From NCBI GenBank assembly GCA_041389225.1, contig JAWKSI010000001.1:51821-115820 (forward strand): DNA of 64,000 nucleotides, written 5' to 3'. The DNA comes from Candidatus Doudnabacteria bacterium (GTDB taxonomy: Bacteria > Patescibacteriota > Doudnabacteria > UBA920). Shown piece by piece: positions 31,359-31,843 of this stretch. A program made the position numbers and the translations under genes. Under the pieces are notes generated by a model. That model searched no databases and had not been told where the DNA came from. It saw only the letters and a list, made by a program, of their open reading frames with translations. Positions within the stretch are counted from its first letter, which is position 1, and each line of letters starts with the position of its first letter.

Positions 31359-31446
31359 GGAGAGGTCGCATAGTGGTCTAGTGCGGTGGTCTTGAAAACC
31401 ACTGTGTCGCAAGGCACCGAGGGTTCGAATCCCTCCCTCTCCGCCA
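31359..31446 (+). tRNA. tRNA-Ser(TGA)
   Basis: GGAGAGG acceptor stem, anticodon loop cTTGAAa, long variable arm, T-arm GAGGGTTCGAATCCCTC, 3' end CCTCTCCGCCA. Confidence 0.85.
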
Positions 31447-31843
31447 CAAACTTGACTGCCATTTATGGTAGTTAAGTTTGTGGTAGAAATGAAGGGTGAG
31501 AAATAGAGTGGTTCTACTTTTGCATAGTATTTGCAAAAGTAGAAACCAAAAGGTCTGGGAGACCTTTTGGTAACGGCGGGTCGCCGCAGCGTATCTCGAC
31601 GAGCTACAATGAGCGTAAGCGAATGTAGCGAGGAGAGTAGCGGAAGGTGACCGAATCCCTCCACTTCCGCCATGGATTTGGTCATCGCAGATGATCAAAT
31701 CCATGGTAATGGTGGAGCATTCTCTATCCTGACTCATCTTTGTCCGTTGACGTTAGGAGGCGGAATACATATGGAAATGCCGGAACGAAGTTACGGCCTC
31801 CACTTCCGCCACAAACTTGACTGCCATTTATGGTAGTTAAGTT
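31447..31843 (+). mobile_element. tandem integration scars. Two further copies of the tRNA-Ser(TGA) 3' end (31652-31672 and 31797-31811, both ...cctccacttccgcca) are present. A 32-nt downstream flank (caaacttgactgccatttatggtagttaagtt) is duplicated at 31447 and 31812. The region also contains an arm element (31701-31796) homologous to 29036-29132.
   Basis: Direct repeats read from the sequence. Perfect 11-bp hairpins at 31514-31542 and 31546-31570. A 17-bp hairpin at 31670-31706. Confidence 0.6.

Follow-up and report, generated by a model that had tools for sequence, protein, structure and literature searches.

A tandem array of putative gene-free attachment-site modules behind a tRNA-Ser(TGA) gene of a Doudnabacteria genome

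Transfer RNA genes are classic landing sites of prophages and genomic islands, and the mobile elements of bacteria of the Candidate Phyla Radiation (CPR) are poorly known. Among the systems described at such sites, cis-mobilizable elements (CIMEs) have lost their integration and transfer genes and kept the attachment (att) sites attL and attR, and their arrays grow by integration into a resident att site (PMC5704250). They target a gene's 3' end, in many cases that of a tRNA gene; among them are elements related to ICESt1 of Streptococcus thermophilus (Pavlovic et al., 2004, reviewed in PMC5704250). The islands recognized by Islander have a regenerated tRNA gene at one end and a 3' fragment of the tRNA gene in direct orientation at the other, can form tandem arrays and are required to contain an integrase gene (PMC4383910). 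The integrase of phage mv4, which targets tRNA-Ser, uses a 21-bp core whose 7-bp overlap must be identical while the 7-bp half-sites tolerate variation, and its complete attP measures 234 bp (bioRxiv 10.1101/2023.11.06.565760). In the Prochlorococcus tycheposons, serial integrations occur at one tRNA, newer elements push older ones outward, and partial tRNAs and degenerate remnants lie scattered (bioRxiv 10.1101/2020.12.28.424599). Here we describe a locus in 64,000 nt of a Candidatus Doudnabacteria genome (GCA_041389225.1, contig JAWKSI010000001.1, positions 51,821 to 115,820; this whole stretch is called the window), where an intact tRNA-Ser(TGA) gene is followed by two gene-free intervals, E_A and E_B, each closed by a further copy of a tRNA-Ser 3' end. 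We believe, with some confidence but well short of certainty, that this is a tandem array of discrete miniature modules bounded by att sites and inserted site-specifically at the tRNA gene's 3' end.

The resident tRNA-Ser(TGA) gene (31359-31446, + strand) is intact, encodes its CCA and has a perfectly paired acceptor stem (GGAGAGG/CCTCTCC); it was recognized by ARAGORN, in the sequence itself and by the Rfam tRNA model (RF00005; 60.2 bits against a threshold of 29 bits). A repeat search located two more copies of a tRNA-Ser 3' end on the + strand. Copy 2, CGAATCCCTCCACTTCCGCCA (31652-31672), runs from the T-loop to the CCA of a tRNA-Ser of the GGAAGTG type and agrees with the resident end in 18 of its 21 nt. 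Copy 3, CCTCCACTTCCGCCA (31797-31811), matches copy 2 at 15 of 15 positions and the resident tRNA at 12 of 15; in dinucleotide shuffles of the window this 15-mer, with up to two mismatches, is expected 0.05 times. Directly behind copy 3 stands the 32-mer CAAACTTGACTGCCATTTATGGTAGTTAAGTT (F32; 31812-31843, + strand), for which the same shuffles give an expectation of 0.00 and which is confined to this locus within the 64 kb. Together, core and F32 form a 47-nt direct repeat of 94% identity (three mismatches, with an exact part of 38 nt) at a spacing of 365 nt. The initial annotation had reported the tRNA gene, the two extra copies and the 32-nt repeat, and ARAGORN, Rfam, the repeat search and the raw sequence confirm all of its coordinates, including the exact match of 31812-31843 to 31447-31478. 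It had also stated that there is no cargo, and this holds for the ca. 365-400 bp of inserted sequence: there is no plausible open reading frame (ORF) in 31447-31843, and NCBI has no coding sequence between the flanking genes, whose accessions run consecutively. Two features had gone unnoticed, namely a homologous module at 29005-29147 and three differences that the extra copies share in the acceptor strand.

These three differences fall at the same acceptor 3'-strand positions in copies 2 and 3, which read CACTTCC where the resident gene has CCTCTCC. Such a strand would pair with a 5' strand GGAAGTG and not with the resident GGAGAGG. Scanning the variant 21-mer in genome and metagenome collections returned 38 and 58 loci, respectively. 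In most of these the 21-mer terminates an actual tRNA-Ser gene, mostly one for the TGA isoacceptor, and it does so in ca. 90 fetched loci. The organisms concerned belong to many phyla (Bacteriovoracaceae, Clostridia, Tepidimonas and several Patescibacteria among them); in viral contigs the sole match was a phage tRNA-Ser(GCT). Since the variant is a genuine tRNA-Ser end in many phyla and differs from the resident gene, the distal copies appear to stem from a tRNA-like core that came in with an element and not from a displaced end of the host gene. They had been taken for copies of the tRNA's own end, which their different acceptor strand contradicts. The three-way comparison left a single block of at least 7 nt identical across all copies, TCCGCCA, the last 7 nt of the tRNA (31440-31446, + strand), and this is our candidate for the 7-bp overlap in which the crossover would take place. 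A crossover within it would let the tRNA keep its own acceptor strand and would carry the variant strand of the element to the distal copies, as is observed, and the arrangement agrees with that of the mv4 core. At two loci from other genomes (L084 and L086, described below) the resident tRNA stem is matched and the distal-most core differs just 5' of CTTCCGCCA.

The array consists of the tRNA gene, E_A, E_B and a putative 32-nt stub. E_A (31447-31672, + strand) measures 226 nt including its distal core, lies between copies 1 and 2 and has no ORF of note. It opens with a hairpin (31443-31484, + strand) whose 19-bp stem starts in the GCCA of the tRNA and closes with TGGT, detected by folding, as an inverted repeat, with the E_B covariance model and by a signature search; an outer helix extends it to 31431-31496. 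Next come two back-to-back perfect hairpins (31512-31571, + strand), one of 13 bp (31512-31544) and one of 12 bp (31545-31571), the latter reading as an intrinsic terminator on the minus strand. The folding z-scores of the E_A hairpins are -7.9 to -8.3. The GC-rich right arm (31575-31651, + strand) has five AGCG motifs (at 31588, 31612, 31618, 31627 and 31639), for which a role as protein-binding arm sites is a guess, and ends in GCGGAAGGTGAC, complementary to the core that follows. E_B (31673-31811, + strand; 139 nt with its distal core) lies between copies 2 and 3, is not homologous to E_A and differs from it in length. It follows the same plan, a long hairpin that takes in the GCCA right after ...CCGCCA, a short hairpin-rich arm and a tRNA-Ser 3'-end core of its own: its left-end hairpin (31669-31708, + strand) rises from the GCCA of copy 2, closes with TGGT and is extended to 31722 by an outer helix CTCCAC/GTGGAG. 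The signature CCGCCA-hairpin-TGGTAR is present at three module starts in the window (31441, 31667 and 28999), against 0.05 expected by chance.

The stub itself is the left-end hairpin of E_A cut short, without the closing TGTGG. For this reason we read F32 as what is left of a third, truncated E_A-like module, and the 32-nt repeat, described as a duplicated flank, probably does not belong to the host. F32 was also considered as a dif- or lox-like site of 12-6-12 layout, an idea that was dropped because copy 2 has no F32 beside it, whereas all copies have the tRNA-derived core in common. The ca. 400 nt behind tRNA-Ser(TGA) give the strongest + strand folding of the whole window and fold better on this strand than on the other; their GC content is 0.46-0.55 in a genome of 38% GC. 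Around copy 2 stand GCGGAAGGTG...CACTTCCGC, which together imitate the acceptor stem, and no canonical U-tract terminator was found between the tRNA and the modules.

A paralogue of E_B, which we call E_B' (29005-29147, + strand; 143 nt, ca. 70% identical), is found 2.5 kb upstream of the array, in a likewise strongly folding intergenic stretch between a GreA-like gene and the gene of an extracytoplasmic function (ECF) sigma factor. The homology extends over the whole of E_B from core to core (28998-29148; nhmmer E = 3.7e-13; blastn 79% over 85 nt, E = 3e-13). On the left E_B' is bounded by a degenerate core, CCCGCCA (28998-29004, + strand), and on the right it is closed by CCTTACTCTCCACCA (29133-29147, + strand), which repeats the tRNA-Ser(GCT) 3' end with one mismatch; ends of this type have two matches in the window, with 0.00 expected by chance. 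The covariance model of the pair scores 178.7 bits on E_B'. At ca. 30% divergence none of the 38 predicted pairs is broken, five being changed on both sides (compensatory) and eight on one side by way of G.U, which is suggestive of a conserved structure. Because E_B' is a core-to-core paralogue that ends in a tRNA-Ser(GCT)-type 3' end, the same unit of ca. 140 nt is present in two arrays of the window, each on a tRNA-Ser gene and each with a member of this family as its last complete module.

The anchor of the second array is a tRNA-Ser(GCT) gene (11871-11961, + strand; ARAGORN and Rfam). Between it and E_B' are ca. 17 kb (11962-28997) with a low-GC defence island, gene fragments and the GreA-like gene, which the tRNA gene on one side and the tRNA-end copy on the other suggest to be one integrated unit. 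The defence block (11962-25129; GC 0.32-0.35), directly behind tRNA-Ser(GCT) and with all genes on the minus strand, codes for a PIN protein, a YgjP-like metallopeptidase, a type I restriction-modification system (hsdR, hsdM and two hsdS), a NYN protein, a ThsB-like TIR protein and N6/N4 methylases. Its far boundary appears to be E_B' with the GCT-type core. Within it a large serine recombinase (12677-13949, minus strand) is split into a piece of 75 aa with the catalytic YARGSS motif (13722-13949) and one of 331 aa with the Recombinase and Zn-ribbon domains (12677-13672), and is either a pseudogene or the product of a sequencing frameshift; no other recombinase was seen in the window. From 26700 to 28350 on the minus strand, between the defence island and E_B', runs a series of short decayed gene fragments, among them a deoxynucleoside/thymidylate kinase in two pieces (N-terminal at 28085-28345, C-terminal at 27708-28004) and a radical-SAM fragment (27285-27485). 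Right behind the GCT-type core (29148-29206) lie a palindrome of 16 nt, CTCGTGCTAGCACGAG, and a hairpin with a perfect stem of 21 bp (29161-29206) that ends in a T-run, a native-looking terminator of the kind expected behind a displaced tRNA end.

Inserts of comparable design were met in other genomes. Of the 94 tRNA-Ser loci fetched, 57 had 2 kb or more of sequence behind the tRNA, and core copies were accepted with up to two mismatches. Core copies that are not part of a tRNA gene lie 143-376 nt downstream in ca. nine independent cases, and farther away only in L084 and L086. The inserts are gene-free and hairpin-rich, some are in tandem, and they come from Clostridia, Saccharibacteria and metagenome contigs of unknown taxon. 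Families from different genomes have the layout in common and not the sequence, with weak k-mer sharing among independent inserts. In the metagenome contig L086 (4395-7161) the tRNA is followed by a mini-unit, a second one homologous to the first whose core is degenerate, a 2.3-kb module that codes for a GNAT acetyltransferase and for an XRE-type helix-turn-helix (HTH) protein, and a core, all three modules ending in the same arm ccgccgaaaggctcgtcgga plus core. L084 (3896-6963), also a metagenome contig, has one mini-unit and then the 2.3-kb GNAT/XRE-type HTH module, and neither stack contains an integrase. Their gene-free units measure ca. 190 nt, and their tRNA-Ser(TGA) sequence is also that of the Clostridia metagenome-assembled genomes (MAGs) L007 and L023. 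Homologous mini-units number two in L086, one in L084 and one in L007, and there are none in the other genomes with the identical tRNA.

Two Clostridia MAGs have a mini-insert of ca. 140 nt in common (L023, 2014-2154; L034, minus strand, 1317-1455), with an almost invariant block of 38 nt, CTGTGC...CACAGCGAACCCCCTTCACGGGGCTGACG, and with flanking hairpin stems that differ yet stay paired; it matches no Rfam family. L018 and L031 show a duplicated core and flank with a truncated second copy, comparable to F32. In L018 (370-620), a Saccharibacteria MAG, the acceptor stem of a tRNA-Ser(CGA) has GGAAGAG on the 5' side and CACTTCC on the 3' side, which leaves an A.A mismatch, and the 3' end of this tRNA may have been replaced by one derived from an element; a duplicated core with a 61-nt flank and a third, partial core follow. 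Two-copy loci are enriched in an inverted T-arm core that lies 36-50 nt behind the CCA (four of six, against one of 32); the window has it only in a degenerate form. Homology between E_A and the insert of L058 and L066, suspected from short blocks, was dropped after a global alignment scored z = -0.6 against shuffles, the two having in common only a 9-nt junction, GA(G/A)GGTGAC, beside the core.

How such an array could arise may be pictured as follows. A recombinase encoded elsewhere, most likely a tyrosine integrase, would exchange strands within TCCGCCA, so that the tRNA would keep its own acceptor strand and the CACTTCC strand of the element would land at the distal copies. Further modules could then insert into the tRNA end, once it is regenerated, or into one of the distal cores, and the array would grow by accretion. 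Being about as large as a complete attP and having no recombinase, the modules would be miniature CIMEs. We infer the class of the recombinase, the position of the crossover, the order of events and any present mobility of the modules from the sequences compared here. The initial annotation had called the locus the footprint of successive integration and excision (or deletion) events. As to integration it was broadly right, for tRNA-Ser 3'-end copies of att type stand in direct orientation behind an intact tRNA, and the array does need more than one insertion event. A footprint in the sense of random leftovers of excision or deletion is another matter, as E_B recurs from core to core at a similar length (139 vs. 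143 nt) with its structure conserved, and comparably small gene-free inserts recur and stack at tRNA-Ser genes of unrelated genomes.

Several observations weigh against discrete mobile modules. No tyrosine recombinase (Phage_integrase domain) was found in the window ORFs scanned, and the only one of any class nearby is the split large serine recombinase of the neighbouring island. Targeting of tRNA genes is so far known only for tyrosine integrases and not for serine recombinases (PMC4383910), but this enzyme may conceivably be involved. No full-length element with arms like those of E_A or E_B turned up in phage, plasmid, viral or fetched loci, and E_A has no detectable homologue. The structural conservation of E_B and E_B' rests on two sequences. 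The cores of the GCT array are each one base off TCCGCCA, and its sites may be dead. The fetched loci were chosen by one exact 21-mer, which biases their size distribution. Finally, the Doudnabacteria MAG has no close relative in which an empty or differently occupied site could be shown: it was not among the matches of a scan of species-representative genomes, and the six window proteins found in a collection of 15 billion proteins (RecG and RadA included) were all singletons at 90% clustering, which leaves no occupied/empty comparison at strain or species level. Exact look-ups of the flanking proteins gave no contig on record, and other Patescibacteria have no tRNA-Ser beside their FIST gene, the gene that lies downstream here.

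The closest alternative shares with our interpretation an integrative origin and differs in what was integrated. Full-length prophages or islands could have entered serially and decayed in place, leaving arms next to the att sites and terminators, so that the modules as such were never mobile. We hold this to be unlikely, though it deserves serious attention. The inserts have neither integrase nor gene, the neighbouring array is full of decay (the split serine recombinase, the split kinase, the radical-SAM fragment), and the adjacent FIST gene is split as well; terminator-like hairpins are the expected survivors beside a tRNA gene, and small remnants caught between an essential tRNA and its neighbour might last longer than any others, which would account for the small sizes at other loci as well. 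But independent decays would hardly stop at the same boundaries, as E_B and E_B' do at 139 and 143 nt, both core to core, nor keep their stems through compensatory changes with no broken pair. The three overlap-like blocks of the TGA array still agree fully, as does the 32-nt stub with the start of E_A, and homologous mini-units are distributed as two, one and one in L086, L084 and L007 and are missing from the other genomes with the identical tRNA. For these reasons discrete miniature modules are favoured over decay in place of full-length elements. Duplication without any site-specific recombinase, by slippage or unequal homologous recombination among hairpin-rich sequences, seems very improbable to us. 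A 47-nt repeat with 38 exact nucleotides could indeed support homologous exchange, and hairpins promote slippage; yet E_A and E_B, of unequal length and not homologous, are no tandem duplication of one unit, the distal cores have a foreign acceptor strand, and the design recurs at the other tRNA-Ser of the window and in other phyla.

The folding of the region raises the alternative that what is maintained here is RNA, i.e., a structured trailer or small RNAs co-transcribed with the tRNA, with the GCCA-ended mimics as processing or stabilizing signals and the duplication as a secondary matter. Its attraction lies in the strongest + strand fold in the 64 kb, better than that of the minus strand, in G.U pairs within conserved stems that work only on the + strand, in the elevated GC, in the acceptor-stem mimic around copy 2 and in the missing U-tract terminator after the tRNA. 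We nevertheless find it quite unlikely. In Rfam 15 only the two tRNAs pass the gathering score and the best others stay far below (e.g., tmRNA_permuted, 13 vs. 47 bits), ARAGORN found no transfer-messenger RNA in the window, and the E_B covariance model had no member in 55 other loci. The inserts of different genomes are alike in layout and not in sequence, and RNA function alone leaves unexplained the direct repeats of a foreign tRNA 3' end and their occurrence where a 17-kb island has its far boundary. As the source is a metagenome-assembled genome, one may also think of repeats misjoined or duplicated by the assembler, the least credible of all these possibilities: at no more than 47 nt the repeats are below the typical final k-mer or read length and they are not identical (three mismatches), the intervening 318 nt are unique and internally coherent, a diverged paralogue sits 2.5 kb away, and independent assemblies of other organisms have the same architecture.

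The locus is an ordinary piece of chromosome. Upstream of the array are the genes of the ECF sigma factor and of a DUF5667 anti-sigma-like protein, and downstream those of a FIST sensor, 100% identical to NCBI MEZ4179981 of a 126-kb contig, and of a two-component system. The FIST gene (31951-33103, + strand) is divided into an ORF of 294 aa and a separate one of 81 aa, the latter matching residues 303-382 of homologues of 383 aa (65% identity, E = 2e-35); it is either frameshifted or a pseudogene. Farther away, a type IV secretion-like cluster (43897-48062, minus strand) with a VirB4/TraG-type P-loop ATPase, a PrgI-family protein and unannotated neighbours is possibly a conjugation or DNA-uptake apparatus. 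A perfect 12-bp hairpin between the LemA and M48 peptidase genes (5520-5548), the strongest minus-strand fold of the window, is probably a terminator.

Going back to the discrete modules, one may ask how far the case extends. It is conceivable, although we would not rate it as likely, that E_A, E_B, E_B' and the inserts of 143-376 nt represent a widespread and undescribed class of elements, attP-sized and without recombinase, propagated in trans by recombinases that act on tRNA-Ser 3' ends and stacking like cassettes. Their conserved + strand hairpins, in which the CCA end is sequestered and an acceptor stem imitated, could then have a function of their own, e.g., as tRNA-trailer RNAs or as folded recombination substrates. 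Folded single-stranded attachment sites are known from the attP of CTX phage and the attC of integrons. Repeats of tRNA ends as marks of integration, and att-flanked elements without integrase, are known already; what would be new is the miniature gene-free, recurrent, stackable and structurally conserved form, of which a limited literature search found no description. Nor did sequence databases offer a counterpart, as blastn searches with the window insert and with three foreign ones had no relevant match among phages or plasmids, the inserts of other genomes match no Rfam, phage or plasmid record, and the scan of viral contigs for the flank had no match. If such modules do act as discrete units that can be reused, and are no debris, they would form a stratum of mobile DNA which present-day island finders drop. 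They could be taken for scars, and the tRNA-like ends for tRNA genes or tRNA pseudogenes. The modules would provide spare attachment sites beside tRNA genes and might seed a cassette-like build-up of cargo, possible cases being the GNAT/HTH module of L084 and L086 and the 17-kb defence island. The locus would also supply a concrete att sequence for a recombinase search in CPR bacteria.

It remains to place the modules among the elements they most resemble. Miniature inverted-repeat transposable elements (MITEs) are likewise small, gene-free, multi-copy and structured, with an enzyme presumably supplied in trans. This assignment was rejected because the ends here are direct tRNA-derived repeats of 15-47 nt, with neither terminal inverted repeats nor a short target-site duplication, and the inverted repeats are internal hairpins. 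Module ends that are direct copies of a tRNA 3' end point to site-specific recombination rather than transposition. Palindrome-associated transposable elements (PATEs) and repetitive extragenic palindromes (REPs) derived from IS200/IS605 have subterminal hairpins, lack direct repeats, are associated with a TnpA or RAYT and occur as dispersed copies; they were rejected too, given the direct tRNA-end repeats, the restriction of F32 to a single locus and the absence of an HUH transposase domain from the window ORFs scanned. Elements of large serine recombinases carry a serine integrase gene and have attL and attR with a very short common core; a split recombinase of this kind is present in the neighbouring island (12677-13949), yet the repeats here are of 15-47 nt.

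The resemblance to the islands of Islander lies in the intact tRNA-Ser(TGA) at one end and the + strand 3'-end copies at 31652-31672 and 31797-31811. The modules depart from them in having no tyrosine integrase gene inside and in that the fragment is a variant and not the displaced end of the resident tRNA. With mv4 they share the tRNA-Ser 3' end as target and a putative scheme of 21-bp core and 7-bp overlap, and its 234-bp attP is comparable to their sizes; but mv4 is a complete phage with its own integrase, in Lactobacillus and not in a CPR host, and the likeness meant here is one of organization. As for the tycheposons, tRNA-Ser(TGA) is among their labelled sites; unlike our modules, they carry tyrosine recombinases and cargo, and the text consulted describes no gene-free hairpin-rich units of 140-230 nt (bioRxiv 10.1101/2020.12.28.424599). 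With CIMEs the modules have in common the lack of integration and transfer genes and the same logic of accretion, and at the level of sequence TCCGCCA is identical in the three copies and the half-sites are similar, the copies being putative attL and attR sites. As regards parentage, E_B' sits at the end of a 17-kb island, and searches of phage, plasmid and viral sequences and of the fetched loci brought up no full-length element with the same arms. To our knowledge, the CIMEs described so far are decayed integrative and conjugative or mobilizable elements on the kilobase scale that still carry genes. The modules behind tRNA-Ser(TGA) differ from these in being gene-free units of 139-226 nt, about the size of one attP, with conserved hairpins and with one of them present in two arrays.

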